The notes under the pieces are model-generated. The model searched no databases, was not told the origin of the DNA, and saw nothing but the letters and a program-made list of their open reading frames with translations. Made by a program: the position numbers and the translations under genes. DNA of 33,021 nt from a virus (Duplodnaviria > Heunggongvirae > Uroviricota > Caudoviricetes): the IMG/VR virus record IMGVR_UViG_2651869781_000018, one strand, 5' to 3'. Of the stretch, positions 2,631-31,310 are shown piece after piece (the first letter of the stretch is position 1; each line of letters opens with the position of its first letter).

Positions 2631-2640
2631 CAGGTGCTTT

Positions 2641-2928: not shown

Positions 2929-2939
2929 AGGGCGTTGCG

Positions 2940-3292: not shown

Positions 3293-3378
3293 CAGAGCAA
3301 ATAAAACCACAGATTAAATAAGAAAATGTAAAAACAATCCGCATTCGCGGAGGTATTCGCACACGCCAAGGAGGCGTA

Positions 3379-3582: not shown

Positions 3583-3824
3583 CCATTCTGGACTATATCG
3601 CCGCCAATCCGGGGTGTAGCGGTGGAGAAATCGCCGCAGCACTGAATACACCAACCACAACCATTAATGCGGAGCTACGCCGTCTCTGGCGCAGCGGTTT
3701 AGTCACAAGAAAAGAGCGCAAAACAGGCGGTCGCTTTTCTTATCAGGTAAACCTGATGCCGTTTGGGTGTAGCAACCCACTAACCCAGATGTTCAACCAG
3801 CTACTGAGGGAAATCAGAGCATGA
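3579..3824 (+). CDS. Small winged-helix type DNA-binding protein (81 aa)
   Basis: Start overlaps previous stop (ATGA); segment GGEIAAALNTPTTTINAELRRLWRSGLV looks like an HTH/winged helix. Confidence 0.5.
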   Translation: MTILDYIAANPGCSGGEIAAALNTPTTTINAELRRLWRSGLVTRKERKTGGRFSYQVNLMPFGCSNPLTQMFNQLLREIRA

Positions 3825-3965
3825 GCACCTCCAACTGCCGGAAACCACGTCGGGCTTCAGCAGCTCATCCGGCAGCAAAACAAACTCCATTAATTCCTGT
3901 TCCGGGCCTTTCCTGCACCTTGCGGCGGGAGGCCTTCGCACATCTGTAACAAGAGGATTGCCGCA

Positions 3966-4331
3966 ATGATTCTCGCCAACGACTTTCTTGAATACCTGCT
4001 CAACACAGAGCGTGATCTTGCCGCTCGCGTGCGTGATCGTTATGACATGTACCTGAAATCCCTGTCTGTACCGCAGCTCGCTGACGGAAAGATTGTTATT
4101 GATGGTCGCTACATGATTGACAGCCACGAGGGAAATTACAGGCTTTACCGCATTGAAGGTGGCACCCCGTCCGTTATTGGCATTTACCAGCGCCCATCCT
4201 CTGCAATCGTCGATGTGATTGCCGACAGCATCCGCATCACACATCGCCATGCCGACACAGAAGACACCGTGCTGGAAATTCAGCGGCTGGCTACAGTCTG
4301 CCGCGACACCCTGAATGGCATGACGAAGTAA
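3966..4331 (+). CDS. Hypothetical phage early protein (121 aa)
   Basis: ORF immediately upstream of A, co-directional. Confidence 0.5.
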   Translation: MILANDFLEYLLNTERDLAARVRDRYDMYLKSLSVPQLADGKIVIDGRYMIDSHEGNYRLYRIEGGTPSVIGIYQRPSSAIVDVIADSIRITHRHADTEDTVLEIQRLATVCRDTLNGMTK

Positions 4332-4337
4332 ATCACT

Positions 4338-7160
4338 ATGACGGCAGAGTACATCAGGGACTGGCAACAACCGCGCCACGCAGTGGGGCGTGAAGGAACG
4401 GGGATCCCCGCTCCTGAATCCGCGCTTTCCTCCTGGCTGGATGCCTACCGGGTAGAGAACGAGCGCCGCCAGGAAATGGCTGATGCGGCGTTCTCCGCCA
4501 CGCCACTGGGCAACCTGATTAATAAAAGCCTGGACGCACAGGAAAAACAGGACAAAACCATCACACTGGCAGGAGACGCCAGAAAACAGGCACGCGGCGC
4601 GGTGGATGAAGCCATGGCCTCGCTGCGCCTGCTGCCGTCCTATCTGCGCGATCCGCTTATTCGCCACCTCTCCTTCCTGCGCAAAAAACAGGAAGCCGAT
4701 CGCCGGAAAGGCAAAAAGAGCTGGCAGGCGGAACGCTATGCACGCGGAACCCTGCGCAAAATATTCGAACGTCTGGATCGCACTGACGGACACTGGCTGA
4801 CACCGGGTTATCGCTCCCTTGCCGGACGCGAACGCCTGGACGATTTGCTTTACCTGCCGCAGCTCAACAAACACCAGATACAGACGCTGGCCACCATGAC
4901 GGCGGCGATGTTCAGCAGCACCTTCGAAAAACTCTGCGATGGCTTTGGCGCGACCGATGGCGAACTGACCATGGATGTAACGCTGAAGGCGTATCAGATG
5001 CTGGCCCGCATGGCGTTACACCTGCACATCATGCCTCCACATTATGACGCACTGACAACAGATAAAGACCGGAGGAACGAACCGGACACGGAGCTGCTGC
5101 CGGGCGCAATCCTTCGCCTGACCTGTGCGGAATGGTGGAAACGCAAACTGTGGCTGTTACGTTGCGAGTGGAGAGAAGAACAACTCCGCGCCGCCTGTCT
5201 GGTTTCCAGAAAAACATCACCCTATCTGAGCCAGGACGCGTTAAGCGAGTTTCGCGCACAGCGCGAGAAAACACGCGATTTCCTGAAAAGTTTCATGCTG
5301 GAAAACGAAGACGGGTTCACGATTGATCTCGAGACAGTGTATTACGCGGGAGTAAGTAACCCGGTTCACCGTAAGGCAGAAATGATGGCCACCATGAAGG
5401 GGCTGGAACTTCTGGCCGAAGCCCGTGGCGACAAAGCGGTGTTTCTAACTGTCACCTGCCCGTCAAAATACCACGCCACAACAGAGAACGGTCATCCGAA
5501 TCCCAAATGGAACGGGGCCACCATGCGCGACTCCAGCGATTACCTGGTTAACACGTTTTTTGCAGCGGTCCGCAAGAAACTGAACCGCGACGGCCTGCGC
5601 TGGTATGGCATCCGCACGGTGGAGCCTCACCATGACGGCACCGTGCACTGGCATATGATGGTCTTTGCTCATCCGGAAGAAATCGACACCATTGTGTCCC
5701 ACACCCGCGATATTGCCATTCAGGAAGATCGTCACGAGCTGGGTGATGATATTACCCCACGCTTTAAGGCGGAGTACGTCGACGGCTCAAAAGGCACGCC
5801 AACCAGCTACATCGCCACCTACATCGGAAAGAACCTGGACAGCCGCGCCGTGGATGGCATCGACCCGAAAACGGGCAAGCCACGCGTTGACCACGAAACA
5901 GGTAAATCAATGGCCGAGAGCGTGGAGCGAGCCATCGGCTGGGCGCGCCTTCACCGGGTCCGCCAGTTCCAGTTCTTTGGCATCCCCTCCCGTCAGGTGT
6001 GGCGTGAACTCCGCCGCCTTGCCAGCCAGATGGCACGCAACCCGGAAGGCCCGCAACGGCTGAAGGATGACGCAATGGATGCGGTACTCGCTGCCGCTGA
6101 TGCCGGATGTTTTGCCACCTACATTGAAAAACAGGGTGGCGTACTTGTTCCGCGCAAGGACTACCTGATTCGCACAGCCTACGACCTCGCAGATGAGCTG
6201 AACGATTACGGCGAACAGAGTGTACAGATTTACGGGATCTGGTCGCCATTCATCGGGGAATCCTCCCGTGTGTGCACGCATCCGGATAACTGGAAGCTGG
6301 TAAGACGTAAACCGGAAGCGGAAGACAGCGCCCGCGAAAATGGTTTTGACCTTCAGGGCGGCCCTGCCGCCCCTTGGACTCGTGGCAATAACTGTCCCCG
6401 TGTACAGGAAACAGGCAACAACGGGACAGAACAGCCGGAAGAACGGCCAGCACCGTGGCCGCAGCTTCCTGACGGCGTTGAAGTAAATGAATGGATGCGC
6501 TCACTGAAACGGCACGAACGCCGGGCGCTGATGCGTTCGCTTCGTGACAAACAGGCAAAAAACAGCAGCGATGAAATGCAGAACTGGACACAGAGCCGCA
6601 AACAGCAGCGGCCTTTGCCTGATAACCACGAGTTACTCGCTAAAGAATGGCGGGAGTCTGCTGAATCTCTCGGCCTGCATATCGGTGAACAACAGATGCA
6701 GCACCTGTTACGGGGCGGCAGTCTGTACGTTGACGGCAGCATCATTGCACCGCAGGGATTTGAAATTGTACGCAAACCGGATACCCGCCCGGACAGCCGA
6801 ATCACGCAGCTCTGGCAGCGTCTGAGCCGTAATCATGGCGTAAGCAGCACGGAGATCCGCCATAACCCGGTCGCCAGCTATCTGGCACAGCTGGGGGCAT
6901 CAGACCCTGAAGCCGCCGCACGCCTGGCATCCACACTTCAGCAGGACCAGAACACCATGAAAACACCCGTTACCGTGCTTTCTGACATGCTGCGCGCCAT
7001 CCGCGACGCAGAGCACGCACAGAGAATCAGTGAAACCACTGAACGCGCCAGCCGCAAAGCAGACCTGCTGCGGGGTGGCCTGACCAGTGGAAACAAAAAA
7101 CAGACAGAAACGGGACTCACGAATCCCGTAAATGAGCAAAAAACGCGCAGCGATATATGA
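4338..7160 (+). CDS. A: Rolling-circle replication initiator endonuclease, P2 gpA family (HUH relaxase-like), 940 aa
   Basis: HUH metal-binding motif HWHMMVF and paired-tyrosine motif YIATYIGKN; position and size consistent with P2 A but about 180 aa longer than P2 A as remembered, with a charged, Q/R-rich C-terminal extension. Confidence 0.9.
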   Translation: MTAEYIRDWQQPRHAVGREGTGIPAPESALSSWLDAYRVENERRQEMADAAFSATPLGNLINKSLDAQEKQDKTITLAGDARKQARGAVDEAMASLRLLPSYLRDPLIRHLSFLRKKQEADRRKGKKSWQAERYARGTLRKIFERLDRTDGHWLTPGYRSLAGRERLDDLLYLPQLNKHQIQTLATMTAAMFSSTFEKLCDGFGATDGELTMDVTLKAYQMLARMALHLHIMPPHYDALTTDKDRRNEPDTELLPGAILRLTCAEWWKRKLWLLRCEWREEQLRAACLVSRKTSPYLSQDALSEFRAQREKTRDFLKSFMLENEDGFTIDLETVYYAGVSNPVHRKAEMMATMKGLELLAEARGDKAVFLTVTCPSKYHATTENGHPNPKWNGATMRDSSDYLVNTFFAAVRKKLNRDGLRWYGIRTVEPHHDGTVHWHMMVFAHPEEIDTIVSHTRDIAIQEDRHELGDDITPRFKAEYVDGSKGTPTSYIATYIGKNLDSRAVDGIDPKTGKPRVDHETGKSMAESVERAIGWARLHRVRQFQFFGIPSRQVWRELRRLASQMARNPEGPQRLKDDAMDAVLAAADAGCFATYIEKQGGVLVPRKDYLIRTAYDLADELNDYGEQSVQIYGIWSPFIGESSRVCTHPDNWKLVRRKPEAEDSARENGFDLQGGPAAPWTRGNNCPRVQETGNNGTEQPEERPAPWPQLPDGVEVNEWMRSLKRHERRALMRSLRDKQAKNSSDEMQNWTQSRKQQRPLPDNHELLAKEWRESAESLGLHIGEQQMQHLLRGGSLYVDGSIIAPQGFEIVRKPDTRPDSRITQLWQRLSRNHGVSSTEIRHNPVASYLAQLGASDPEAAARLASTLQQDQNTMKTPVTVLSDMLRAIRDAEHAQRISETTERASRKADLLRGGLTSGNKKQTETGLTNPVNEQKTRSDI

Positions 7161-7236: not shown

Positions 7237-8196
7237 ATGAAAATTTACATCGACGACGGCTCCACCAACATCAAGCTGGCATGGACTGAGAACGGCGAAC
7301 GCCGCAACGCCATCAGCCCGAACAGCTTCAAGTCGGAATGGTCTGCGCCGTTCGGTGGCTCGCAGCCTGCTAACTACATGCTTGATGGCGTGCGCTATGG
7401 TTTTGATCCGGTCAGCGATCGCTTTGTCCAGACGACCGACACGCAATACCAGTACAGCGATGTGAATGTCATTGCCATTCATCACGCGCTGGTCAAATCA
7501 GACATCACGCCACAGGAAGTGGATGTGGTTGTTACCCTGCCACTGAGCGAATATTTCGACACAAACGCACAGCCGGACATGGCCAACATCAACCGCAAAA
7601 AAGCGAACGTCATGCGCCCGGTGGAGTACCAGAACGGCGAAGCATTCACTATCCGTAACGTACGGGTTATGCCTGAATCCATTCCGGCTGGCTTTAAAGC
7701 ACTGGCTGACATGAGTCCGTTTGAATCCCTGCTGATTGTGGATTTGGGCGGAACCACGCTGGATGTGGCAAAGGTTCAGGGGCAACTGGCAGGTATCAGC
7801 CAGGTGTTTTGCGATCCACACGTAGGCGTTTCTCTTATGGCCGATGCCGTACTGTCGGTGATGGCCACTAACGGTATGCGCACCAGTCACCACATCGCCA
7901 ATACCATTATCGAACATCGCCATAATGAAGCCTGGCTGCGCCAGCACATCCACAATGACGCGCATTACGCCAGCCTGATGGCGGTTATTCGTGAAAAGGA
8001 AGAAACACTGAAACAACGCGTGATCCGCGCGCTGGCGGTTTTTTCGGGTTACGGGCGGGTGATGGTTGTCGGTGGCGGGGCGGAGATTGTGGCACCCGCT
8101 ATCCGCGAAGCCTGCGGAGTTAATGCGACTTTCATCGCGGACGGGGTGCCACAGTTTGCTCTGGTTAATGGGCTGTACGCAATGGACAAGGAGTAA
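7237..8196 (+). CDS. parM: ParM/StbA-family actin-like segregation ATPase
   Basis: 319 aa; N-terminal phosphate-1 motif IYIDDGSTNIKLAW, then SPNSF, YSDVNVIAIHHAL, PESIPAG, LIVDLGGTTLDVA, VMVVGGGAE and FALVNGLY all align with R1 ParM (StbA) as remembered; RBS AAGGA upstream. Confidence 0.85.
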   Translation: MKIYIDDGSTNIKLAWTENGERRNAISPNSFKSEWSAPFGGSQPANYMLDGVRYGFDPVSDRFVQTTDTQYQYSDVNVIAIHHALVKSDITPQEVDVVVTLPLSEYFDTNAQPDMANINRKKANVMRPVEYQNGEAFTIRNVRVMPESIPAGFKALADMSPFESLLIVDLGGTTLDVAKVQGQLAGISQVFCDPHVGVSLMADAVLSVMATNGMRTSHHIANTIIEHRHNEAWLRQHIHNDAHYASLMAVIREKEETLKQRVIRALAVFSGYGRVMVVGGGAEIVAPAIREACGVNATFIADGVPQFALVNGLYAMDKE

Positions 8197-8200
8197 ACCA

Positions 8201-8512
8201 ATGACGACACCAACCAGACGGATAAGTTTCTATCTGAAGCCCGCCGCCGTCAAGAACGAAGGAGAAGCATGCGCCTGGCTGGACAGCCTTACACCAGAAG
8301 CCCGCAAAAGCGGCCAACGCGTGGCTTTTCTGGCCGGGCTGGCACTTCTGAAGACGAATCCGGCAGAGGCTTACCGACTGGCCGCATGGGCTGATGATGA
8401 GATGTTACCTGTGACACAAATCAGCTCAAAAAAGTTTGAAGCACAGTCTGCACCAGTGGCTAAGATAACCAGCCAGATGGCTGGGAATATCCGGGCGTTA
8501 TTTCCTGAGTAA
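8201..8512 (+). CDS. parR: ParR-like ribbon-helix-helix centromere-binding adaptor
   Basis: 103 aa starting MTTPTRRISFYLKP (ATG 5 nt after the parM stop); ISFYLKP / DSLTPEARKS / AFLAGLAL resemble R1 ParR N-terminal RHH region as remembered. Confidence 0.7.
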   Translation: MTTPTRRISFYLKPAAVKNEGEACAWLDSLTPEARKSGQRVAFLAGLALLKTNPAEAYRLAAWADDEMLPVTQISSKKFEAQSAPVAKITSQMAGNIRALFPE

Positions 8513-8640
8513 AAGCATCTGCGCGAAAAATGCTCACGTTTATAGAGACAGTATCATTCCATTTGGCACACTTACTTCAATAATCGATCTGTTAAACAAA
8601 TAGATTGTCTATTATCTATCGATTAAAACGATCAATTATC

Positions 8641-8668
8641 TTGACAGTAATGTGCCTTTTTGTAAGAT
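8641..8668 (+). promoter_or_regulatory. Candidate sigma70 promoter (TTGACA, 16-bp spacer, TAAGAT), preceded by operator-like dyads (8583..8640) and followed by a dyad overlapping the predicted start site (8673..8702)
   Basis: Perfect -35 hexamer and a 4/6 -10 hexamer at correct spacing read from sequence; flanking ATAGA-N3-TCTAT and CGCAtTGT-N10-ATAATTGCG dyads. Confidence 0.4.
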
Positions 8669-8710
8669 CGTTCGCATTGTGAGCGACAAGATAATTGCGC
8701 GGCATTGTCC

Positions 8711-8859
8711 ATGCAAAACGCCCCAATAGCAGCAACTATTGGGGCGTAAAACTCGGTCGGACTCACTTAACCTGATATGCGTGCCTTCCGAAGTAAATCA
8801 AAATGTGCGTCGTATATTTTATTGCTTACACGCACCTCTGTAAAGGCACGCATATTTTT
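8711..8859 (+). ncRNA. Structured leader or small RNA candidate: 13-codon mini-ORF wrapped in a perfect 12-bp hairpin (8718..8747), then a long nested stem-loop (8777..8853) ending in TTTTT immediately before the RBS of the 89-aa gene
   Basis: Inverted repeats ACGCCCCAATAG/CTATTGGGGCGT and ATGCGTGCCTT/AAGGCACGCAT with inner GTGCGT/ACGCAC, followed by a T5 run; seen in sequence. The function (sRNA, attenuator or terminator of parMR) cannot be decided from sequence. Confidence 0.3.
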
Positions 8860-8876
8860 CCTATGAGGTAAATAAA

Positions 8877-9146
8877 GTGCGGGCTAAAACAGGTATTTGC
8901 AAGAACCCTCATCGTTATAATCCAACATTTCTGTCTCTCCCTGAATATCAAGGACAAGAAGGTCGGCACAAATGCGCTGCCTGTGCTTTTGAGCTAGGCA
9001 TAAAAGATGCGCTTGAAGGACGCGCTATGGCTCAGAATGATTTAGTTTTAGCTAACATTCCGTTTAGCCAGGCTGGAACTGTAAGGCACAGAGATGCCTA
9101 TGAAGCATATGTTCGTGGTTGGCGATTAATAAACAGCAACAATTGA
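8877..9146 (+). CDS. Hypothetical 89-aa protein in the A-to-cos cargo slot (GTG start)
   Basis: GTG start with GAGGT Shine-Dalgarno 7 nt upstream; followed by a canonical hairpin plus T-run terminator; no family recognised. Confidence 0.55.
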   Translation: MRAKTGICKNPHRYNPTFLSLPEYQGQEGRHKCAACAFELGIKDALEGRAMAQNDLVLANIPFSQAGTVRHRDAYEAYVRGWRLINSNN

Positions 9147-9149
9147 TAC

Positions 9150-9178
9150 TTTTGAAGCGCCGATAAGGCGCTTTTTTT
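9150..9178 (+). terminator. Rho-independent terminator (GAAGCGCC-GATA-AGGCGCTT followed by TTTTTTT)
   Basis: GC-rich perfect stem and T7 tract directly after the 89-aa ORF stop. Confidence 0.65.
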
Positions 9179-9179
9179 G

Positions 9180-9632
9180 TTTGCACGATAGTGCACAAGT
9201 TTGCACAATTTTTTTGAACGACTTTTTGTACTTCCGGCCCGCGTGGTGGCTGGATCCGTCAAGGATCCGTACGTGCACAAAAAAACGCGTTTTTTCTGCG
9301 CGCAGGTGACGGGGGAACAGCCCGCGTTTCAGGGGGTAAATAGCATTCCCTGAACGATGTCGCAGAGATACAACAGAATGGCCATATTTCTCACGCTGAG
9401 CATGAAAAAGACGTGAGAGCTTTTGATTTGATGGGGTGAAAGGTAAGGCCGTCAAAATCGCACTGAGACGGCGAGAACATGCAGTCAACGCGGTGGGATT
9501 GCGTAAGAGTCTGACTGTCGATGATGGCAATCAGCAGGAAAGCGTCGTGAAATTATCTGATTGATACAGGAGCTGGAGAGTCGGGGCATAAATTTTTTAT
9601 GCCCCGGCGAAGCAGCAGACAAGCGAAGCGCG
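9180..9632. other. Non-coding region expected to contain cos (the packaging site), by synteny between the A-side cargo and the 3' end of portal gene Q; exact cohesive-end site not assigned
   Basis: Position equivalent to P2 cos; contains TGCAC-rich direct/inverted repeats (9181..9215), the palindrome AAAAAACGCGTTTTTT (about 9283..9298), a G-rich 19-mer GGTGACGGGGGAACAGCCC (about 9307..9325) with partial resemblance to remembered P2/186 cohesive ends, and a hairpin CGGGGCAT..ATGCCCCG (about 9582..9606) downstream of Q. Confidence 0.3.
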
Positions 9633-10679
9633 TCAGGATGTGGGCTGGGTGTCTAACAGTGCGTAAGGGTTAAAGCGGATCACCTCTTCGCCAAGCCAGT
9701 CATTGATGTGCTTCATGGCCTCCATGACGGGCATCAGCTCGTTAATTGCGTAAACCCGCGCGGCCTTCTCCACATCACCAAACGCACTTTTTTCGCCCGG
9801 CATTGCCCCCATCAGTTGCGGCGGAACGCGGTGCGCAGCCAGCACATCATCACGGGATGCCGCCTTAACATTCATGAACTCATCCTTTGCGGTGATCTGC
9901 TGGAACGGCAAAATTTGCACCCCCTCTTTGCCCCCGTTGGGCGCATGAATGAGCACGTTTTTAAACGCACCACCACCACGTGCCCCCTGTAGCGTTTCTT
10001 TCAGGGAGTCCATGCTTTCGCGGTTTACCTGCGCTGCACCGATGTAGATGATGCACCCGGCGTGGGATCCGTTGTCGTAATACAGTTTTCTGAACATGTC
10101 CGCCGAATGAGACAGGCTGGCCGAGAGTAATGCGCCAAGATATTCCGGCATGCCGTAGATTTCCTGGTTAATATCCGGATTCATCAGGTGGCACACTTTG
10201 CCAGGGCGAAACTGGAACGCGTCCTTGCCATCCTGCACATACCACCATGATTCAAGATCGCTTCCGCGTCGCATGTATTTCGCCAGGGCGTGCCGTAATT
10301 TAAGCGGTTCACCGAGCATATTGCTTCGAAGCTCAAGGAATGCGTTACCGAACACAAACCAGTCCAGCGCCAGCACCGAGAAATCCTGCCGGGAAAGCAG
10401 CGGGTGCGGAATATAGCAACCGAGCAATACATTGCGCTTAAAGTAAAGCGCAGACTGATGCCAGGACGTTTGCCGGGCAGCTCTTGCCAGACCGTACCAG
10501 TCCACCGGGGTTTCATACCACCGCCCGTTATCAGCACAGTACATATTGTCCAGCAGGTCATGCCCGGTCAGGCGATAAGGACCATCAAATGTGAATGCAC
10601 TGAGCGATGATTCTTTCCTGAGCGCATCAGCGAGATCAATGCGTGAACTCATGCGCACTTTTTTATTTTTTCTGCTCAT
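9633..10679 (-). CDS. Q: Portal protein (capsid portal vertex), P2 gpQ-like
   Basis: 348 aa; extensive motif match to P2 Q as remembered (NGRWYE, FVFGNAFLE, LMNPDINQE, GMPEYL, KLYYDNG.HAG, HRVPPQLMG, WLG.EVIRF). Confidence 0.9.
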   Translation of the reverse strand: MSRKNKKVRMSSRIDLADALRKESSLSAFTFDGPYRLTGHDLLDNMYCADNGRWYETPVDWYGLARAARQTSWHQSALYFKRNVLLGCYIPHPLLSRQDFSVLALDWFVFGNAFLELRSNMLGEPLKLRHALAKYMRRGSDLESWWYVQDGKDAFQFRPGKVCHLMNPDINQEIYGMPEYLGALLSASLSHSADMFRKLYYDNGSHAGCIIYIGAAQVNRESMDSLKETLQGARGGGAFKNVLIHAPNGGKEGVQILPFQQITAKDEFMNVKAASRDDVLAAHRVPPQLMGAMPGEKSAFGDVEKAARVYAINELMPVMEAMKHINDWLGEEVIRFNPYALLDTQPTS

Positions 10680-20841: not shown

Positions 20842-23001
20842 ATGAGTACCACAACACGAAAATTTAAAACCGTTATCACCGATACAGGTGCCAAAAAATT
20901 AGCTCAGGCAGCCGCGCCAGATGGTAAGCCTGTTCGCCTGACTCATATGGCCGTGGGCGACGGTGGCGGCACGTTGCCCACACCAGACAGTAAGCAGACC
21001 CGTCTGGTGCATGAGGTGTGGCGACATACTGTTAATCGCGTCATCCTGGACGCAACACATCAGAACCGCATTATTGCGGAGCTGCTTATTCCTCCTGAAA
21101 CGGGCGGATTCTGGATCCGGGAAATTGGTGTGTTTGATGAGAACGGCGATTTGATCGCGGTGGGCAATACTGCCGAAAGTTACAAGCCAATCGTTGCCGA
21201 AGGGTCCGGACGCGCACAAACATTTCGCACCATTCTGACCGTATCCAGCACTGCCACCGTGGCGCTTACCGTGAATAACACCATGGTGATGGCCACAGTG
21301 GATTACGTGGATGACAAACTGAAAGAGCATGAACAGTCACGACGTCACCCGGACGCCTCGCTGACCGCAAAAGGCTTTGTTCAACTCAGTAGCGCCACTA
21401 ACAGCGTGTCTGAAACGCAGGCTGCAACGCCGAAAGCGGTTAAGGCCGCGTATGATCTTGCTAACGGTAAATATACTGCGCAGGATGCCAGCACGACGCG
21501 AAAAGGCCTTGTCCAGCTCAGTAGTGCCACCAACAGCACGTCTGAAACACTGGCCGCGACATCGAAAGCGGTTAAGGCGGTAATGGATGAAACGAACAAG
21601 AAAGCGCCCTTAAACAGTCCTGCGTTGACCGGAACACCAACAACACCAACTGCGCCAAAAGGGACTAATAATACTCAGATCGCAAGCACGGCTTATGTTA
21701 TGGCTGCGATCGCTGCCCTCGTGGATTCGTCGCCTGATGCACTGAATACGCTGAACGAGTTGGCTGCGGCGTTGGGCAACGACCCGAATTTTGCGACCAC
21801 CATGACTAACGCGCTTGCGGGTAAGCAACCGAAAGATGCCACCCTGACGGCGCTGGCCGGGCTTGCTACTGCGGCAGACAAGTTTCCGTATTTTACGGGG
21901 AATGATGTCGCCAGCCTGGCAACCCTGACAAAAGTCGGGCGGGATATTCTTGCGAAATCGACCGTTGCTGCCGTTATCGAATACCTCGGTTTGCAGGAAA
22001 CGGTAAATAAGGCTTCTGGCGCATTACAGAAAAACCAGAACGGCGCAGATATTCCCGATAAAAAACTATTCCTGCGTAATATCGGCACAACAAATTCAAC
22101 AACCATGTCTTTTAGTGGTGGTGCTGGATGGTTCAAACTGGCAACTGTAACAATGCCACAAGCCAGTTCCGTGGTTTACATAAGCCTGATTGGTGGCGCA
22201 GGGTTTAACGTTGGCTCCCCGCATCAAGCAGGCGTCTCTGAGCTGGTTCTGCGTGCCGGAAATGGAAATCCAAAAGGTATTACTGGTGCATTATGGCGAC
22301 GGACCTCGGTTGGATTTACTAATTTTGCATGGGTGAATACATCCGGTGATACCTATGATGTTTATGTTGAAATAGGTAATTACGCCACAGGTGTTAATAT
22401 TCAGTGGGATTATACCAGTAACGCCAGCGTAACGATTCATACATCACCAACTTATACAGCGAATAAACCAACAGGCCTGACAGATGGAACTGTATATGTA
22501 ATTTACAGTTCGCACATTAAACCGACTGCTGCTGAGGTTGGGGCGTTGTCATTATCTGGCGGTCAATTGAATGGTGCACTGGGCATCGGAACATCCAGTG
22601 CTCTTGGTGGTAACTCGATTGTTTTGGGTGATAATGACACGGGATTTAAACAAAATGGCGACGGGTATCTGGATGTTTATGCTAATAACGTCCATGTTAT
22701 GCGCTTTGTCTCCGGCAGTATTCAAAGTAATAAAACCATAAATATTACAGGGCGTGTTAATCCCTCAGATTACGGTAACTTTGATTCCCGTTATGTGAAA
22801 GATGTTCGACTTGGTTCACAGCAATATTATGGCGTGAACAACTGGCAAACATGGAATTTCCAGTGCCCGTCAGGTCATGTATTGACTGGTATTAATGTTC
22901 AGGATACAGGGTCCAATTCTGCCGATAATATAGCGGGCGTTTATTACAGACCCGTTCAAAAGTATATAAATGGCACCTGGTATAATGTAGCGAGCGTTTA
23001 A
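20842..23001 (+). CDS. H: Tail fibre protein H (constant N-terminal part fused to the currently expressed variable C-terminal part)
   Basis: 719 aa; internal tandem repeat ([24 protein letters not shown], about 21364..21590); C-terminus ...[14 protein letters not shown] nearly identical to the C-terminus of the inverted H' cassette. Confidence 0.9.
21974..21999. promoter_or_regulatory. Left crossover site of the invertible segment (gix/hix-like 26-bp site TTATCGAATACCTCGGTTTGCAGGAA) inside H
   Basis: Inverted copy of the site upstream of the invertase gene; core AAACC-GA-GGTTT-type dyad as in Gin/Hin/Cin/Pin systems; coordinates approximate (+/-2). Confidence 0.7.
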
Positions 23002-23002
23002 T

Positions 23003-23530
23003 ATGATGCACTTAAAGAACATAAAAGCGGGTAACGCTAAAACACTGGAACAGTATGAGTTAACAAAGAAACACGGAGTTATCTGGCTTTACTCTGAGGA
23101 CGGAAAAAACTGGTATGAGGAAGTGAAAAACTTTCAGCCAGACACCATAAAGATTGTTTACGATGAAAATAATATTATTGTCGCCATCACCAAAGATGCA
23201 TCCACGCTTAACCCTGAAGGTTTTAGCGTCGTTGAGGTTCCCGATATAACAACCAATCGTCGGGCCGATGATTCCGGTAAGTGGATGTTTAAGGACGGAG
23301 CTGTGGTTAAACGGATTTATACGGCTGACGAACAGCAACAACAGGCCGAATCACAAAAGGCCGCGGTACTTTCCGAAGCAGAAAGCGTTATTCAGCCACT
23401 GGAGCGCGCTGTCAGGCTGAATATGGCGACGGATGAGGAACGCGCACGACTGGAATCATGGGAACGCCACAGTGTTCTGGTCAGCCGTGTGGATACAGCA
23501 AATCCTGAATGGCCACAAAAGCCTGAATAA
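23003..23530 (+). CDS. G: Tail fibre assembly chaperone G
   Basis: 175 aa; strongly similar to the divergent paralogue on the minus strand (HLKNI.AGN.KT.EQY.LTK...[18 protein letters not shown]). Confidence 0.85.
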
Positions 23531-23534
23531 AAAT

Positions 23535-23556
23535 TAAGGCCCGATAGTGGGCCTTG
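23535..23556. terminator. Hairpin (AAGGCCC-GATAGT-GGGCCTT) between convergent G and G', likely bidirectional terminator
   Basis: Perfect 7-bp GC-rich inverted repeat between two converging stop codons. Confidence 0.5.
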
Positions 23557-23558
23557 TC

Positions 23559-24092
23559 TCATTCTGGTTGTTCGGGAAACGTTACTGGCAGGCTGGAGGT
23601 GTCTGTAGATTCGACTTTCTGCGCATAGAGCATCCACTCGGTTAATTTTTGTTTATTCTCGTCGGAAATGATACCCAGCCGTAGCTGTGAGTCCCATAGC
23701 TGGGTTTTATCCCTGACAAGTTGCAACAGGCTTTGCTTTTCATTCTCTGCCTGCTGCCTCTGTTCCTCCTCGGTATAAGTTCGCTTTATCACCGCGCCAT
23801 CTTTGAACATCCAGTTACCCGAAATATCAGCCCGTCTATTGGCTGTTATATCAGGCAACTCAACAACGCTTAAACCTTCTGGATTAATTGCCGATACATC
23901 CTTATCAATAGCAACAATAACTCCCTCTGCTGTGTAAGCTAGCTTTATTGTATCTTCCTGAAAGTTTTTCACTTCCTCATACCAGTTTTTTCCGTCTTCA
24001 GACCATAACCAGATAACATTAAAATTCTTTGTTAGCTGATATTGTTCAACGGTTTTTGGATTACCTGCGACAATGTTTTTTAAATGCTGCAT
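23559..24092 (-). CDS. Alternative tail fibre assembly chaperone G' (silent in this orientation)
   Basis: 177 aa paralogue of G on the opposite strand inside the invertible segment. Confidence 0.85.
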
Positions 24093-24095
24093 AAG

Positions 24096-25040
24096 TTACA
24101 CCTGCGCCACGTTATACCATGTGCCATTGATGTATTTTTGTATTGGTCTGAATACAGCCGGATCATCGCCATCAACAGAGCCAATAATGCCAAGCCCTGT
24201 AATTACATGACCTGATTTCTCATACATCACGCCTTTTTGCATGGTCTGAACAACACGAGTGCCCAGGCGAATATCTCGTACATAGCGAGAATCCGATTCA
24301 GCTTTGGTATATGCACCAACATCTCCCGCAGAGGGTTTGCGGGTTGTGGTATAAAACTCTGACCAGTCAGCCTCAAATCCATAACCATCTCGCGCTGAAC
24401 GATAATAAATACCGCCGTTCTTATAATTCACGCGTAATTGTACAGCCGGGCAGCTACCCGCGTTCATATTGAAATGAAGAATTAATGTTGATGCGCCTTT
24501 TAGGTCTGCATCATAAACACCGCTATTCCAGTTCCAGCCAACAGCTTTATCATTTGCAACCCTGTTTCCTGTCTGCCCTAAAGCAAATGCAGGTTGCAGG
24601 TTTTTCGTGTTGTAGTCTCGTCGCCAGCCAGGAGCGTAAGCATCACCATGATTAATATAAGTGAATTGAGCGTTAGTGATTCCGCCACCACTGGAAGTGC
24701 TTGGTGTTGTTACACGGATGGTCATGGCACCTTTATTACCCATAACCTCAATAACGCAACCTGCAAGATGAATAGTTCCACAGCCAGTATCGGTTATAAT
24801 TTTATTATTGCCATACGACCATGAACATTTGCACATCCAGTATGGGTGATTGAATGCCCCTTGAGAATCCAGCCATTCAATCAATTGTGCCGTTGTCCAG
24901 TTCCCTGCACCTGTACTAATAGAACTGTGAAAAGCGCGACATGCACCAATATTTTTTGTGAAGGTATCTTTTCCTGGAATATCTGCGCCGTTCTGGTTTT
25001 TCTGCAATGCGCCTGAAGCCTGATTTATCGTTTCCTGCAA
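24096..25040 (-). CDS. Alternative tail fibre variable C-terminal cassette H' (promoterless; would be fused to the constant part of H after inversion)
   Basis: Begins [21 protein letters not shown], the same junction sequence found inside H ([22 protein letters not shown]); ends ...[14 protein letters not shown]; the annotated start codon is TTG and is probably not a true initiation site. Confidence 0.75.
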   Translation of the reverse strand: MQETINQASGALQKNQNGADIPGKDTFTKNIGACRAFHSSISTGAGNWTTAQLIEWLDSQGAFNHPYWMCKCSWSYGNNKIITDTGCGTIHLAGCVIEVMGNKGAMTIRVTTPSTSSGGGITNAQFTYINHGDAYAPGWRRDYNTKNLQPAFALGQTGNRVANDKAVGWNWNSGVYDADLKGASTLILHFNMNAGSCPAVQLRVNYKNGGIYYRSARDGYGFEADWSEFYTTTRKPSAGDVGAYTKAESDSRYVRDIRLGTRVVQTMQKGVMYEKSGHVITGLGIIGSVDGDDPAVFRPIQKYINGTWYNVAQV

Positions 25041-25058
25041 ACCGAGGTTTTAGATAAT
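25033..25058. promoter_or_regulatory. Right crossover site of the invertible segment (TTCCTGCAAACCGAGGTTTTAGATAA)
   Basis: Reverse complement of the left site over the half TTCCTGCAAACCGAGG; lies just upstream of the invertase gene; coordinates approximate (+/-2). Confidence 0.7.
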
Positions 25059-25093
25059 GGCCGTTTCTGACCTGCATGGCATGATTTACGCTT

Positions 25094-25699
25094 TTGGACG
25101 GGAGATTCAGCGTGCTGATTGGCTATGTAAGGGTATCAACAAATGACCAGAATACAGACCTGCAACGAAACGCTCTTGTTTGTGCAGGATGTGAACAAAT
25201 ATTTGAAGATAAATTAAGCGGGACAAAGACAGACCGACCGGGATTAAAACGCGCTTTAAAGCGCCTTCAAAAAGGTGACACGCTGGTTGTCTGGAAACTG
25301 GATCGCCTCGGGCGAAGCATGAAACATCTGATTTCTCTCGTCGGGGAACTACGGGAGCGAGGGATTAATTTTCGCAGTCTGACCGACAGCATAGATACAT
25401 CTTCTCCAATGGGGCGTTTTTTCTTCCACGTGATGGGTGCCCTGGCTGAAATGGAACGTGAATTAATTGTTGAACGTACACTGGCCGGACTGGCAGCAGC
25501 GCGCGCACGGGGGCGCACAGGCGGACGTCGCCCGAAGCTGACAAAAGAACAGCATGAGCAAATAGCAAGGCTGATTAAAAACGGTCACGACAGAAAACAA
25601 CTGGCAATAATTTACGGCATTGGTACATCGACGATTTATCGTTACCACCCCGCAGGAGAATCAAGCGGAACAATAGAGAAGAGTCAGAAAACAAAATAA
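25094..25699 (+). CDS. Serine DNA invertase, Gin/Pin/Cin/Hin (Din) family
   Basis: N-terminal catalytic motif LIGYVRVSTNDQNTDLQRNAL, then GDTLVVWKLDRLGRS and a C-terminal HTH; very close to Mu Gin as remembered. Annotated start is TTG at 25094; a GTG at about 25112 (M-LIGYV) with GGGAGA RBS is an alternative. Confidence 0.9.
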   Translation: MDGRFSVLIGYVRVSTNDQNTDLQRNALVCAGCEQIFEDKLSGTKTDRPGLKRALKRLQKGDTLVVWKLDRLGRSMKHLISLVGELRERGINFRSLTDSIDTSSPMGRFFFHVMGALAEMERELIVERTLAGLAAARARGRTGGRRPKLTKEQHEQIARLIKNGHDRKQLAIIYGIGTSTIYRYHPAGESSGTIEKSQKTK

Positions 25700-25728
25700 C
25701 CGCTAATCTGACCATTAGCGGTTTTTGC
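25700..25728. terminator. Hairpin plus T-run (ACCGCTAAT-CTGACC-ATTAGCGGT TTTT) between convergent invertase and U genes, likely bidirectional terminator
   Basis: 9-bp perfect stem followed by TTTTT on the plus strand and preceded by AAAA (T-run on the minus strand). Confidence 0.6.
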
Positions 25729-25734
25729 GTTAAA

Positions 25735-26229
25735 TCAGAACAGCCCTTTAACTGAACTGGCCGCGCTGTTAAGAGATGATGTCACCTTATCTTTGAAGCC
25801 GGACAGCATATCGCTGAACGATGAGGATTGCAGGCGCTCCCGCAAATCCTCATCACAGCGTTCAAGGGTCAGTGAAAATTCTATCTTTTTCGCCTTACCG
25901 TAGCGATCAAACTCGGAACGGGTCGTATTCGTTCCGGTCAGGACATACATGCCGTAAATCTGCCCAACGCCATCAATCAAAGGCCAGGGTCGTCCTGTAT
26001 ACGCCTGCATGGTCAGCAGCGACAGCGACACTTCGCCACCTGTAATTTCAGGATAAAGCACACCAGAAAGAACGATGCGATCATCACCTGCACCGATATA
26101 CTGCCAGCTTGCTGAACGGTTAACGCGTTCATTTTTCACATGCCGCCAGCTTTTGTTTTGCTGTAACTGCTGATGCGGCAGCGTGCGCAGCTCAAAAACA
26201 AACATGCCGTAGATCATCATCATGGCCAT
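25735..26229 (-). CDS. U: Tail protein U-like
   Basis: 164 aa, immediately downstream of the tape measure gene on the minus strand; size and position match P2 gpU. Confidence 0.75.
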   Translation of the reverse strand: MAMMMIYGMFVFELRTLPHQQLQQNKSWRHVKNERVNRSASWQYIGAGDDRIVLSGVLYPEITGGEVSLSLLTMQAYTGRPWPLIDGVGQIYGMYVLTGTNTTRSEFDRYGKAKKIEFSLTLERCDEDLRERLQSSSFSDMLSGFKDKVTSSLNSAASSVKGLF

Positions 26230-26235
26230 GACTCC

Positions 26236-29079
26236 TCAATCTTTATCGTAAAAACTGCCACGCCCGGCACGGGCGCGCCGTTCCATTTCTGCCCTGACCA
26301 TTTCACCGACCAGTTTCGCCAGTTCGCGGGGATTCTGCGTAACAACGTTATGCAGATGAACATGAATTTCACCGCCAAATCCTGAGGCAACAGGTTCCCG
26401 GTTACGCGAAGGTGTTGGGGCTGATGCCACTGGCGATCGTATGGCCTCCGCCACCGGGCGGGAGCTGGCCGCAACAACAGGGACCAGCGCCGGAGGCAGC
26501 GGGGCCGGAACCACAGGCGTGATATTAATTGCGGGGGCAGGCTTACTGACCTGCGCAATCTTCCGCTCCTGCCACTCCCCACGAACGGCAAGTGCGCGGG
26601 GCAGGTTCTTAAAGACAATATCGCCGGGGCCAATGCGTTTTTTCGTCTCATCAACCAGCTTACCTGTGTTATCAGCAATTTTGCTGAGTCTGCGTAGCGT
26701 ACCGGTATTGCTGTCTGTGAGCGGTTTGTTGTCTTTGGGTTTATCGCCTCCGGTGCCATTGCCATTTTCCACAGGCTTCGGCGGATTGATTTTCGCCAGG
26801 TCCCCCTGAAGCAAGGCAACCTTGTCCTGAAGAATGGCCGCACGCTGTGCGTCTTCGATTTTCTTGCGCGCCCTTTCCGCTTCATCCGGAAGCACACCAA
26901 GCTTTTCAAGTATCCACGCCAGCGTATCCAGCAACATTTTTGCAGGCGTCAGAACAAGCTGTAACGCACCCCCAAGAACGTTACCGAATACCTCGCCAGC
27001 ACTGGTGCATTTATCCAGCGTTTCCTTGCTGAACTCCATCGGTAACAGCAGCGATTTAAACCAGTTAAACACCTGGCTGATCCCGCTTCCGATTGCGTCA
27101 AAAACAGGGCCAAACCGTTCAAAGGTTTCGCGCAACGGGGCCAGTCGCTCCATAATCCCACTGAACACCCCGGCATAAAACGCCTTGATGGGTTCCCAGT
27201 ATTTCCAGATGAGAACCGCCGCAGCGACAAACGCTGCAGCAATCAACCCGACCGGACTGAACAGCGCCCCGATAGCGCCTCCCAGCAACGAGATGGAACC
27301 TGTTACCATTCCCCATAGTGCTGGCAGCACCCTGACGACATTCATTGATCCGGTCAGGAGAGAAAAACCAAGACGTAACGTGGCCAGTTTCCCGTGAAGC
27401 ACACCAATAACCAGCGACAACGAGCCAACCGTTGCAGTCATTGCCAGCAGCGCACCGCCTGCTATCAGCAGCTGGCGCGTCAGTACCGGATGAGCCTGCG
27501 CCAGCGCCGTCACCTTTGAAACTACCCGCGTGAGCCACTGCGTGACAGAACGCAGCGGGCCGTCAATCAGATCTGCAATGCGGATGCGCAACCCTTCCCA
27601 TGCACTGCTGAGTGATTTCAGATCGCCGTCAAGGTTGTTGGCCATAACCTTTGCCGTGCGTTCAGCCTCACCGCGCGCGCCTTCAAGTTCTTTTCTCAGT
27701 TTGGGTAAGGAGCCGTCACCTGCCGCATCAACGAGGGCCATAAATGATGTGAAAGCCTCTTCTCCGGCAATGTCCTTAAAGAACGATACCCGGTCAACTT
27801 CCCCGTATTTGCGGGTGGCTTTATAAAGGTCGGCCAGCACATCCTCCATCGGGCGCATTTTGCCGTTCGCATCAGAGACGGACACACCCAGCTCTTTCAG
27901 CGCTTCTGCTGCCGCCTTTGGCGGTGATGCCAGACGAGCCAGGCTGGCACGCATTGCCGTCCCGGCATCACTCCCTCTGATGCCCATATTCGCCAGCACG
28001 CCCGCCATCGCTGCGGCCTGCTCCAGCGATATTCCCAGCTTACCCGCCACCGGACCTGCATATTTCATGGTTTCGCCCAGTGCGCGAAGGTCAGTGTTGG
28101 TACGGGTAAACGCTGCGGTGAGTGTGTCACCAACCCGGTCCATCTGGTCAGCAGAAAGGCCGAACTGCGTCAGGATATTTGAGCCAATATCCGCCGTCTC
28201 GCCGAGATCCATGCCGCCAGCCGTTGCCATGCTCAGCACGCCCGGAAGCGCAGCCTGAATGGCCTGCGGAGTGAAGCCAGCCATTGCAAGAAATGCCTGC
28301 CCACTGGCGGCATCGCCTGCGGTGAACTGCGTTTCAGAGCCAAGTTTTAACGCCTGCTCACGCAGCGCCTTAAACTGCGGGCTGTTCTGGTCGATTCGCG
28401 TCAGTGCCTGAACGCGGGACATCTCTTTCCCGAACCCGATCGCAGGCTGCAAAAAACGCCCGGCAGCATAGCCGCTAGCCGCTGCCGCACCAATTGCCAG
28501 CGCACCACCTGTTTTCAGTTTTCCCGCGGTTTCCTGCGCGCGCGAATACCGCTCACGCGCACGTGTTACACGCGCAAGCGCCTGCCGTTCGCGTTCAAGC
28601 TGGTTGTTGTACTGTTCGGTGCGTCTGATGGCCTGCTGGATGGTGTTATCGCTGCCTGTCAGGGAAATGCCGTGGCGTTTCAGCTCTCCGCCAAGCTCCC
28701 GCATTTTCTGAATTTCCCGTGTACGCGATTCATTCAGGCGTTCAAGCCGGGTGCTTAACTGCTGCATCAGCTTTTGTTGTTTTTCGCTGAGCACTGTACC
28801 CGTGCGTTGTAACTGATTAAGGGCGTTAAGCTGGCGTCGTGCTTTCACGATGCCCGCATCCGCTTTACTGACAGCGTCACGGGCGCGCTCAAATGAACGC
28901 GCCTGACGCTCGAGATTTTTGATCGCCCCCTGCGTTCGCTGGATGGAGTCACCAAACTGCCCCATCAGGCGGCGGGCGTTTTCGGCAGGTCGGGTCAGCC
29001 TGTCAACGGCGCTGAAAGCGACCCGGATATCAAGAGTCTTCATTGTCTGCATTCCCGCTGCGAAGTGCCGCCCGCTCAC
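26236..29079 (-). CDS. T: Tail tape measure protein T
   Basis: 947 aa, alpha-helical/coiled-coil N-terminal half, Ala/Gly-rich hydrophobic middle segment; downstream of the E/E' frameshift pair. Confidence 0.85.
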   Translation of the reverse strand: MSGRHFAAGMQTMKTLDIRVAFSAVDRLTRPAENARRLMGQFGDSIQRTQGAIKNLERQARSFERARDAVSKADAGIVKARRQLNALNQLQRTGTVLSEKQQKLMQQLSTRLERLNESRTREIQKMRELGGELKRHGISLTGSDNTIQQAIRRTEQYNNQLERERQALARVTRARERYSRAQETAGKLKTGGALAIGAAAASGYAAGRFLQPAIGFGKEMSRVQALTRIDQNSPQFKALREQALKLGSETQFTAGDAASGQAFLAMAGFTPQAIQAALPGVLSMATAGGMDLGETADIGSNILTQFGLSADQMDRVGDTLTAAFTRTNTDLRALGETMKYAGPVAGKLGISLEQAAAMAGVLANMGIRGSDAGTAMRASLARLASPPKAAAEALKELGVSVSDANGKMRPMEDVLADLYKATRKYGEVDRVSFFKDIAGEEAFTSFMALVDAAGDGSLPKLRKELEGARGEAERTAKVMANNLDGDLKSLSSAWEGLRIRIADLIDGPLRSVTQWLTRVVSKVTALAQAHPVLTRQLLIAGGALLAMTATVGSLSLVIGVLHGKLATLRLGFSLLTGSMNVVRVLPALWGMVTGSISLLGGAIGALFSPVGLIAAAFVAAAVLIWKYWEPIKAFYAGVFSGIMERLAPLRETFERFGPVFDAIGSGISQVFNWFKSLLLPMEFSKETLDKCTSAGEVFGNVLGGALQLVLTPAKMLLDTLAWILEKLGVLPDEAERARKKIEDAQRAAILQDKVALLQGDLAKINPPKPVENGNGTGGDKPKDNKPLTDSNTGTLRRLSKIADNTGKLVDETKKRIGPGDIVFKNLPRALAVRGEWQERKIAQVSKPAPAINITPVVPAPLPPALVPVVAASSRPVAEAIRSPVASAPTPSRNREPVASGFGGEIHVHLHNVVTQNPRELAKLVGEMVRAEMERRARAGRGSFYDKD

Positions 29080-29559
29080 GCCAGCTAACCACTTCGCCGG
29101 GCGTCATCATGAAGATTTCGGCGGGCGACCAGTTAAAAATAACGGCAATATCTGCCACAAAGTCTTCTATGTGCTCAAAGCACACAACCGTGATCAGGCT
29201 TCCGTCGCCTGTTCGTTCTTCCCGCCAGAGTCCGCACCGCTCAAAAAATTTACGGCAACCACACATAACTGAATAAAGTCACGGGATGCCATTTTTTTGA
29301 TCGTCACTTCATCCAGTCGCGGTGATGTCACGCGTGACAGCAGCGTAAACATGGATTCCGCTTTCAGATTCAGCACATCAGACAGCGACAAATCTCGCAG
29401 AGATCCAGCCTGCTCAATAGCCCCGGTGATCTCCACATACGTGATTTTTTCGCCGCCTCGCTCAATGGGTTGGGTAAGTTTTACGCCACGCTCACTGGTT
29501 TCTTTCACAGTGTCAGCAACTACCGTGTTTTCGGTATCGATGTTTTTCGTCTCTTTCAT
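29030..29559 (-). CDS. E: Tail assembly chaperone pair: E (29194..29559) and the -1 frameshift product E+E' (slip near 29241..29247, extension to 29030)
   Basis: Minus-strand slippery heptamer T TTT TTG (plus-strand CAAAAAA at 29241..29247) lies in the E frame (..VAVNFL..); slipping -1 joins exactly to the overlapping ORF frame (..KFFERCGLW..), as in the P2 E/E' pair. Confidence 0.75.
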
Positions 29560-29613
29560 CAGGAAACTCCTTTCAGTCAGAGGCGACGCACTGCGCCGCC
29601 TGCATATTACTTA

Positions 29614-30126
29614 TCAGCCAAGCCCAAGCGCGGAACGGATGCGATCGGGCACAATGTCCTTGCCGTCCTTCCGGTAAATGAAGTTCAGCAGGTCAATCTC
29701 CCACAACGGACGATCGTTAACACTCAGCTTGTAGTAGGTGTTTTTAATGGCGTAAGTGTGTGATGTGGCTTCGCCCTGTTTGGCTTCCCCCATATCAATT
29801 TCCGTCACACGTCCGCGCATTTCGACTTCATACAGGTCGCTTTCTGCATCGGTGTAGTATTCACCCGCAAAACGCAGCAGCGTGCCGTCAATCGTGCCGC
29901 CATACTTAAGGAACAGCGCACGAACTGCGCCCCCCATGACAAAGCTCGCATCAAGCGCGGAGTCGTCCAGACCGAGATCAATACTTACCGCCCCCATCAT
30001 GCCACCACCCCGATAGCTGTCGGTTTTGCGCGTCAGTTTGGGCAGAGTGACGGACGTCACCTTACCCACTTCGTTTTCACCATCCACAAACAGCGTAAAA
30101 AAGCGAAGATGTTTTGGCACAGCCAT
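29614..30126 (-). CDS. FII: Tail tube protein FII
   Basis: 170 aa; between sheath and E on the same strand. Confidence 0.85.
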   Translation of the reverse strand: MAVPKHLRFFTLFVDGENEVGKVTSVTLPKLTRKTDSYRGGGMMGAVSIDLGLDDSALDASFVMGGAVRALFLKYGGTIDGTLLRFAGEYYTDAESDLYEVEMRGRVTEIDMGEAKQGEATSHTYAIKNTYYKLSVNDRPLWEIDLLNFIYRKDGKDIVPDRIRSALGLG

Positions 30127-31310
30127 CAGGCACCTCCCAGCACCGCAAATGCGGGTTCAAAGTATTCATCAGTAAACGTCTGGTAAAGCTCCATGTCTTC
30201 CAGTGGCGGAACGGGCGTATATTTGTAGCGAATACGCACACGCCCCTGACGTAAATCCGTGGTGCTGTTATCCACCACGTCATACCAGCACTCCGCGCCA
30301 ATCAGTTTCCCGGCAGTCACCAGTGAATCCAGTTTTGCCCTGATGGCACTGATAACATCCTTCACGTTCGCAGGCGTCAGTGGACTGTCGATGGTTTCAA
30401 ACTGCGCTTCCGCAATTGAATCAGCCAGCACCTGTGCGGTTCGGGTATACACCTCAAAGATGTAGGCGTTCGTTTCCGGTGTGCGGTTGCCCCAGAAGCG
30501 GAACCCGTTGCGACGAATAATGGTCGTGATTTCTTTGTTGTTGAGGCTGTTGGCATCACTGTCTTCGGCCTGCAACGACCAGAACACATGCCTAGACATC
30601 CCCAGCACATTTTTAACCGGAACGTTGGACAGCGATTTGTGCCAGCCCTGTTCATGGTCAATGTACGCACGAAGGCCGCACGCATAGGCAGGCGCGGGGA
30701 ACGTTTCGTTTTCGCCACTTTTCGGGTTGTAGGCGATGAAGTCCGGCCATAAGAGCATCACTTCACGTTCGTTGAATTTCTGGCGGTAGGTAATCGCTTC
30801 AGCCATCGTGTTACAGCCGTGACATGAGGCATACACAAATGCGCGCAGTTTACCCGCAATCACGCACAGGGATTTTGTCACCGCCTCCGTGTCCAGCTCC
30901 GGCGCGGCCAGAATACGCGGACGGTATCCGATGCTTTCATCCAGCTCTGCAACAAGCAGCGCATACATCCCCGTATAGCTGCCGTCATCCTCAGAACCAC
31001 CGATAACCAGTTGATCCTGCGTCTTTTCGTCTTCTTCTTTGTGTTCAGCCACGCGAACGACGATCACCTTTGTGCTCACCTGGTCTGCGATGGCCTTAAG
31101 CGCACGATAAAGCGTCCCCGTTGTTCCGCATTTTCCCAGCACGTCATTGACGCGGGTCAGCAGTGTGGGCTTGTTCAGCGGGAACAGCTTCGCGTCCGCA
31201 TCATCCGCCGTTGCCACGATACCGATAACGCTGGAATCAACATCGTTAATCGCTGTTACCAGGTCGGTATTTTCCGTAACACGGGCACCATGAAAACGAG
31301 TTTCACTCAT
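30126..31310 (-). CDS. FI: Contractile tail sheath protein FI
   Basis: 394 aa; motifs FPLNKP, LRAF.Y, WPDF, GWHK.LSNV, RR.GFRFWGNRT, YTRTAQV, Y.YTPVPPLE match P2 FI as remembered. Confidence 0.9.
   Translation of the reverse strand: MSETRFHGARVTENTDLVTAINDVDSSVIGIVATADDADAKLFPLNKPTLLTRVNDVLGKCGTTGTLYRALKAIADQVSTKVIVVRVAEHKEEDEKTQDQLVIGGSEDDGSYTGMYALLVAELDESIGYRPRILAAPELDTEAVTKSLCVIAGKLRAFVYASCHGCNTMAEAITYRQKFNEREVMLLWPDFIAYNPKSGENETFPAPAYACGLRAYIDHEQGWHKSLSNVPVKNVLGMSRHVFWSLQAEDSDANSLNNKEITTIIRRNGFRFWGNRTPETNAYIFEVYTRTAQVLADSIAEAQFETIDSPLTPANVKDVISAIRAKLDSLVTAGKLIGAECWYDVVDNSTTDLRQGRVRIRYKYTPVPPLEDMELYQTFTDEYFEPAFAVLGGA

Follow-up and report, generated by a model that had tools for sequence, protein, structure and literature searches.

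The closest described relatives of the locus reported here are the invertible tail fibre segments of phages Mu and P1 and of several P2-like prophages. The G segment of Mu is laid out in the order Sc, gix, Sv, U, U', Sv', gix, followed by the invertase gene gin, which reads away from the segment. The C segment of P1, which is inverted by Cin at cix sites, relies on the same enzyme family and mechanism, with the enhancer at the same position in the invertase gene. Hin, Pin of e14, and Fin of Fels-2 also belong to this family (Din), and Hin governs a promoter and not a swap of C-termini. Further P2-type examples are Fin of Fels-2 and carotovoricin Er, both of which also stand in the reference list of PMC4272514. 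Goldberg et al. 2014 reported that the tail fibre segments of two P2-like prophages and one Mu prophage in enteropathogenic Escherichia coli (EPEC) E2348/69 flip in clonal cultures, which was demonstrated by paired-end sequencing and polymerase chain reaction (PCR) (PMC4272514). Here, we describe the tail fibre locus, consisting of gene H and an adjacent invertase gene, in IMGVR_UViG_2651869781_000018, a stretch of 33,021 nucleotides (nt) that is called the window throughout and to whose full length all coordinates refer. This locus very probably works as a site-specific inversion switch of the Gin/gix type and belongs to an E. coli prophage of P88 type (Xuanwuvirus, P2-like). It is homologous to the Mu G segment, with the same gene order, and an almost identical prophage carries the segment in the opposite orientation.

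Crossover sites and natural inversion isomers

Two gix-like crossover sites of 26 bp bracket the segment. The left site, TTATCGAATACCTCGGTTTGCAGGAA, occupies positions 21974-21999 on the plus strand inside the coding sequence of H (..VIEYLGLQE..), with its core TC at 21986-21987. The right site, TTATCTAAAACCTCGGTTTGCAGGAA, occupies positions 25032-25057 on the minus strand, with its core at 25044-25045. Both inverted 26-mers are present exactly where a preliminary description of this DNA had placed them, and the stretch of about 3.06 kb that they were said to bracket measures 3,060 bp from core to core. The two sites differ by 2 mismatches of 26 nt, and none of 100 dinucleotide-preserving shuffles yielded any site match. 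Written in the same sense, the left site is TTATCGAATACC-TC-GGTTTGCAGGAA and the right site is TTATCTAAAACC-TC-GGTTTGCAGGAA; the asymmetric central dinucleotide TC is identical in both and lies in inverted orientation. In the Mu record, gix reads TTATCCAAAACCTCGGTTTACAGGAA on both sides. Comparison with known sites, which had been proposed as a check, places the window sites in the gix type, with three mismatches from Mu gix and the TC core shared. The left outer half-site is unusual in that it has GAAT where Mu gix has CAAAA. Each site forms the outer end of one arm of a longer inverted repeat of 93 nt, in which the left arm (21970-22062) and the right arm (24969-25061) are 89% complementary to each other. 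A scan of the window for a third gix-like site, of the kind that a shufflon or the flipped tail operon described below might involve, was made with AAACCTCGGTTT at no more than two mismatches and returned the two known sites and one chance-level match at 17274. In the H gene of NC_070906, a P2-type phage that has no invertase, no relic gix was found at up to eight mismatches, and the LGLQE motif was likewise not found.

The evidence that the segment inverts comes from natural sequences. A synthetic left inverted junction, used as an 801-nt query, has a 100% match in E. coli TUM14668. The prophage of this strain is collinear with the window from 1743 to 33021 at 98-99.8% identity, except that 21970-25061 is reversed, and the reversed portion is itself 99.8% identical (7 differences in 3,092 nt). 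H', the fibre protein that inversion of the window segment would produce, is identical at 697 of 697 residues to the annotated TUM14668 tail fibre, apart from an indel of a 44-aa repeat. Because the junction matches perfectly and the two prophages are collinear with only the segment reversed, they are, judged from their sequences, natural inversion isomers of the same prophage. Within the repeat arms, the differences at 21979 and 21982 remain with the flanks and the first inner difference, at 22003, travels with the segment, which locates the exchange within 21983-22002, a 20-bp run that includes the core. The repeat also has a longer identical stretch, 29 bp at 22027-22055, and the exchange is not located there.

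A second natural pair is provided by a 48,488-bp phage-plasmid of E. coli ATCC 25922, for which two assemblies of the one strain are 99.97% identical except for a 3,071-nt inversion. An A/G polymorphism 6 nt inside the core goes with the segment and the outer half-sites stay put, and the exchange is thereby confined to 10 bp, ACC-TC-GGTTT, which a 41-bp identical run adjoins. A 94-kb record of this plasmid contains both junction types, exactly 48,488 bp apart. The element itself is a RepA plasmid and carries a P2-like tail module; its cassettes are 96%-related to those of the window and its left half-site is the same, and it has a different invertase of 184 aa, only 55% identical to that of the window. 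Public assemblies of this reference strain disagree in the orientation of the segment (records including NZ_CP032086.1). The preliminary description had named a single observed orientation together with an inactive invertase, or crossover sites not conserved in relatives, as findings that would speak against a switch; both orientations occur in near-identical natural prophages, and comparison of the sites finds them conserved among relatives.

Fibre cassettes, invertase and predicted enhancer

As read in the window, gene H extends from 20842 to 23001 on the plus strand and encodes 719 aa. Its constant N-terminal part, Hc (20842-21985, plus strand), lies outside the segment, would be expressed whichever way the segment is turned, and contains the N-terminal domain of Pfam Phage_tail_fib (P2-type tail-collar) and two fibre repeats. 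Hc is collinear with TUM14668 and with phage P88, and its reading frame runs on through the left crossover site; the N-terminal 381 codons of H lie outside the invertible segment. By sequence comparison, the C-terminal receptor-binding part of H in the expressed orientation is the Sv cassette (21988-23001, plus strand). Two Mu-like Yersinia phages, vB_YpM_5 and vB_YpM_6, have tail fibres to which Sv is about 85% identical in aa sequence; the C-terminal half of Sv is 82% identical to P2-type H, and Sv is unrelated to Mu S but for the last ~80 aa. It is followed by its cognate U-type tail fibre assembly chaperone gene at 23003-23530 on the plus strand (Pfam Caudo_TAP, E = 2.9e-35; 91% aa identity to Mu U). 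On the minus strand, the U'-type chaperone gene at 23559-24092 (Caudo_TAP, E = 4.7e-35; 86% aa identity to Mu U') is cognate to the Sv' cassette at 24096-25043, the silent alternative C-terminal part of H, which has 73% aa identity to the variable part of Mu S' and contains Pfam gp37_C. The two alternative cassettes, each with a cognate chaperone, that the preliminary description had proposed are thus found as two divergent cassettes and two Caudo_TAP genes. Its placement of the chaperone genes head-to-head does not hold, as U and U' are convergent, with their 3' ends facing and 28 nt between them.

The Sv' cassette lacks both an ATG and a promoter of its own; its reading frame is opened only by the right crossover site. 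Inversion at the core in silico gives the in-frame H' of 697 aa, and U' begins 3 nt downstream, as had been predicted in the form of a swap of both the expressed H C-terminus and the chaperone. Both fusions are open, at 719 aa for H and 697 aa for H', and each cassette is trailed by its own chaperone gene. Sv and Sv' are similar only over the first ~40 and the last ~70 residues, a pattern that would be expected of alternative receptor-binding domains sharing one scaffold. As a separate observation, H carries a tandem fibre repeat of 132 nt (44 aa) at 21369-21578, and the TUM14668 prophage has one copy more, which means that the length of the fibre shaft varies between the isomers.

A Gin-type serine DNA invertase of 195 aa is encoded at 25112-25699 on the plus strand, just outside the segment (Pfam Resolvase, E = 1.3e-50; HTH_7, E = 9.2e-14). 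The earlier assignment to the Din family close to Gin stands, with a correction to the start codon. Translation almost certainly starts at GTG 25112 (MLIGYVRVS...), the start also used in Mu gin and in the annotations of P88 and TUM14668, and not at the TTG at 25094. The protein is 86% identical to Mu Gin over a 181-aa BLASTP alignment and 81% by global alignment. This identity is unevenly distributed and falls from 98% over residues 1-125 (the catalytic domain) to 54% over the DNA-binding domain. The Gin entries 4m6f and 3uj3 in the PDB match it at E ~1e-100, and for its DNA-binding domain the Hin domain 1hcr gives a slightly higher score than Gin does. At the DNA level, the gene is 86-97% identical to Mu gin up to ~25499 and ~50% identical beyond, with the break near the boundary of the catalytic and DNA-binding domains. 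Two annotated proteins, the "DNA invertase" of phage P88 and the recombinase of the TUM14668 prophage, are 100% identical to the window invertase. The catalytic Ser9 and the wild-type Met114 are present; in Gin, the substitution M114V leads to Fis independence (PMC3575834). Residues that touch Fis and the enhancer, and that set Fis/enhancer-dependent invertases apart from resolvases, have been described in Hin as R43, K47, R48, K51, Q151, R154, and L155 (McLean et al., PMC3798978), and all of them are conserved here, as R42, K46, R47, K50, Q150, R153, and L154. K46, R47, and K50 are basic residues of helix B, and Q150, R153, and L154 make up the Fis patch.

The predicted Fis-dependent recombinational enhancer lies within the 5' end of the invertase gene at 25130-25201 on the plus strand (nt 19-90 of the gene). 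The P1 record annotates an "enhancer of Cin-mediated C-segment inversion" at nt 19-90 of cin, and 25130-25201 is the homologous stretch. A search for such an element had been suggested earlier and is positive at the sequence level: the stretch is identical to Mu gin at 72 of 72 nt, within a first 132 nt of the gene that match at 130 positions. Two G-N13-C cores of the Fis type are recognized at 25133-25147 and 25182-25196 (gene nt 22-36 and 71-85), and the G and C that bound the distal core are retained throughout the seven invertase genes compared. The distance from the centre of the proximal core to the core of the right crossover site is 95 bp, as in Mu, and the corresponding distance in Hin is about 100 bp (PMC3798978).

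Proposed mechanism and alternative explanations

In the proposed mechanism, the invertase would bind the two inverted 26-bp sites as dimers, and host Fis, bound to the enhancer within the invertase's own 5' coding region, would activate these dimers. Both sites would then be cleaved on both strands at the central TC, one pair of half-sites would rotate by 180 degrees (subunit rotation), and religation would leave the 3,060-bp segment flipped. The promoter, the start codon, and the 381 N-terminal codons of H would stay outside the segment, and for this reason whichever cassette faces Hc would be translated as the receptor-binding C-terminus. The chaperone gene belonging to that cassette would follow in the same transcript, and the other cassette and its chaperone would be silent. 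A population of lysogens would be expected to release two kinds of virion that differ in adsorption specificity.

Several points weigh against this reading or moderate parts of it. The difference in receptor specificity between the two fibres is suggested by the divergence of the cassettes, and Fis binding to the enhancer by its identity to that of Mu; the dependence of inversion on Fis is probable on similar grounds. Flipping in the source strain of the window is likewise presumed from related sequences, and the two natural isomers could in principle stem from one rare event. The centres of the two G-N13-C cores are 49 bp apart by manual count. The spacing of the Fis cores in Hin is 48 bp, and the exact registers of the cores are uncertain for this reason. 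A DNA-binding domain only 54% identical to that of Gin, combined with the odd left outer half-site, means that binding affinity could differ from that in Mu. In addition, a consensus scan upstream of the invertase gene found no consensus sigma-70 promoter.

The last three of these features, namely the diverged DNA-binding domain, the left half-site that departs from gix, and the missing consensus promoter, are also what would be seen if the locus were a frozen relic whose parts are recognizable but which no longer flips here, for example because the invertase is unexpressed or is unable to use the divergent left site. We consider this very unlikely, given that the invertase reading frame is intact and conserved without a single change in P88 and TUM14668 and that the isomers separated very recently, as the opposite orientation is found in a prophage with only 7 differences over the 3,092-nt segment. 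The ATCC 25922 element, whose segment demonstrably changes orientation from one assembly of the strain to another, has this left half-site, TTATCGAATACC, too. Among complete E. coli genomes, 125 carry the Sv'-type cassette joined to Hc and 132 carry it beside the invertase, about equally often in either position, and this roughly 1:1 ratio is what a freely flipping switch would be expected to produce.

Isomers by themselves do not reveal which enzyme acted, and RecA-dependent homologous recombination between the arms of the 93-nt inverted repeat, which are 89% identical and include the perfect 29-bp run, might flip the segment with no involvement of the invertase. Where the exchange falls speaks against this. 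The two natural pairs, which are independent, place it in the short runs around the core (20 bp in one, 10 bp in the other) and away from the longer perfect runs (29 bp and 41 bp) that homologous exchange would prefer, and the minimum homology for efficient RecA exchange is above 10-20 bp. An intact Gin-type invertase, gix-type sites, and an enhancer stretch identical to that of Mu are moreover all present. Homologous recombination as the agent is therefore highly improbable, and inversion by the invertase at the gix-type sites is strongly preferred.

The surrounding prophage and comparison with known systems

The chassis in which the switch is embedded is P2-type, as indicated in the window by the Pfam domains Tail_P2_I, Baseplate_J, and Phage_P2_GpU, and in the near-identical TUM14668 prophage by the annotation of a P2-family capsid, GPO, gpM, GpE, D, and Ogr. 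A bidirectional terminator-like hairpin (25698-25723) lies between the invertase gene on the plus strand and gpU on the minus strand. The tail genes FI (sheath), FII (tube), E/E', T (tape measure), and U at 25735-31310 are on the minus strand, opposite to V-W-J-I-H and to D, with gpD starting at 31336 on the plus strand. This flipped tail block is common to P88 and TUM14668; in NC_070906 and in the EPEC P2-like prophage, the genes FI-U follow H on the same strand. Searches for inverted repeats and for gix-like sites found neither at the ends of the block. Elsewhere in the window, 7237-8512 holds ParM-type plasmid segregation genes, according to the annotation of the collinear TUM14668 locus. 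Between these and the portal gene, about 670 bp (8513-9181) do not align with TUM14668 and look like a variable hotspot.

The switch mechanism and its P2-like arrangement are already known, because the P88 layout is annotated, 621 of 5,426 complete E. coli genomes (~11%, about one in nine) have the junction of the invertase gene with gpU, and flipping in P2-like prophages has been demonstrated (PMC4272514). The preliminary description was right to expect known biology and no new mechanism, as the locus conforms to textbook Gin/Fis inversion. The chassis that it called unusual, by contrast, is common, and P88 has the identical invertase and layout. The value of the present analysis is practical and not conceptual, and no new question is opened by it. 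RefSeq labels the silent cassette as incomplete or as a pseudogene, "phage tail protein, missing N-terminus", in TUM14668 (extract 22445-23371) and in ATCC 25922 (9510-10469; 9447-10373). This label systematically mis-annotates what is a functional, exon-like alternative cassette. Where assemblies of a single strain disagree at this locus, they record phase variation and not errors, and, with P88-type prophages so common among complete E. coli genomes, predictions of host range should weigh two fibres per genome.

The cassettes are shared by Mu-like Yersinia phages, a RepA phage-plasmid, and P2-like prophages. It is possible, although the chance is somewhat below even, that the segment and the front of the invertase gene form a portable module exchanged between unrelated phage chassis, those of Mu-like phages, of P2-like phages, and of phage-plasmids, P1-like ones included. 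With the same reserve, the mosaic joints of such a module may lie at the left crossover site and, in the invertase, where the catalytic domain meets the DNA-binding domain. The drop in identity to Mu near 25500 points to a chimeric invertase, which we tentatively picture as a Gin catalytic domain with the Mu enhancer joined to a DNA-binding domain that scores closer to Hin. If this is true, the crossover site inside the fibre gene may itself be a joint at which new receptor-binding cassettes are gained.

Among described systems, a 2024 survey found that a DNA invertase with inversion of the adjacent genes is frequent in this P2-like hotspot (bioRxiv 10.1101/2024.10.15.618418). The P2-like prophages of EPEC E2348/69 resemble the window in having a serine invertase beside a tail fibre gene with alternative C-termini and chaperones. 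They differ in their pix/cix-like repeats (..AAACCTTGGTTTGGGAGAAG..), in segments of ~1.9-2.2 kb, one of which is a three-repeat shufflon, in an invertase only 66% identical to that of the window, and in a tail operon FI-D that keeps the P2 orientation. In the P1 C segment, the DNA of U, U', and Sv' is 87-89% identical to the window and Cin is 73% identical to the invertase; cin reads towards the segment, which is 4.2 kb long.

The best phage match is P88 (Xuanwuvirus P88, Peduoviridae; NC_026014), with 90% DNA identity over 81% of the region and the same outer half-sites. It has the same chassis and layout, annotated as tail fiber, two assembly proteins, tail fiber, and DNA invertase, and beyond the invertase its gpU and tape measure genes lie on the opposite strand, as in the window. 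The two differ in that a Mu S-like cassette is fused to Hc in P88, whereas the window has a Yersinia-phage/P2-like Sv. The paper on P88 makes no mention of an invertase or of inversion (PMC5285337). In addition to its gene order, the Mu G segment shares with the window the same core-to-core length of 3,060 bp (21986-25045 in the window; 1557-4616 in the Mu extract), an equality that holds despite differences of +3 and -3 codons in the lengths of Sv and Sv' and that is possibly a coincidence or a constraint on loop size. Over the stretch that begins with U and takes in the first ~390 nt of the invertase gene, the DNA is 83-97% identical to that of Mu. Unlike in Mu, the constant part of the fibre and the whole virion chassis are of P2 type here (gpV, W, J, I, H, and U, with a P2-family capsid).

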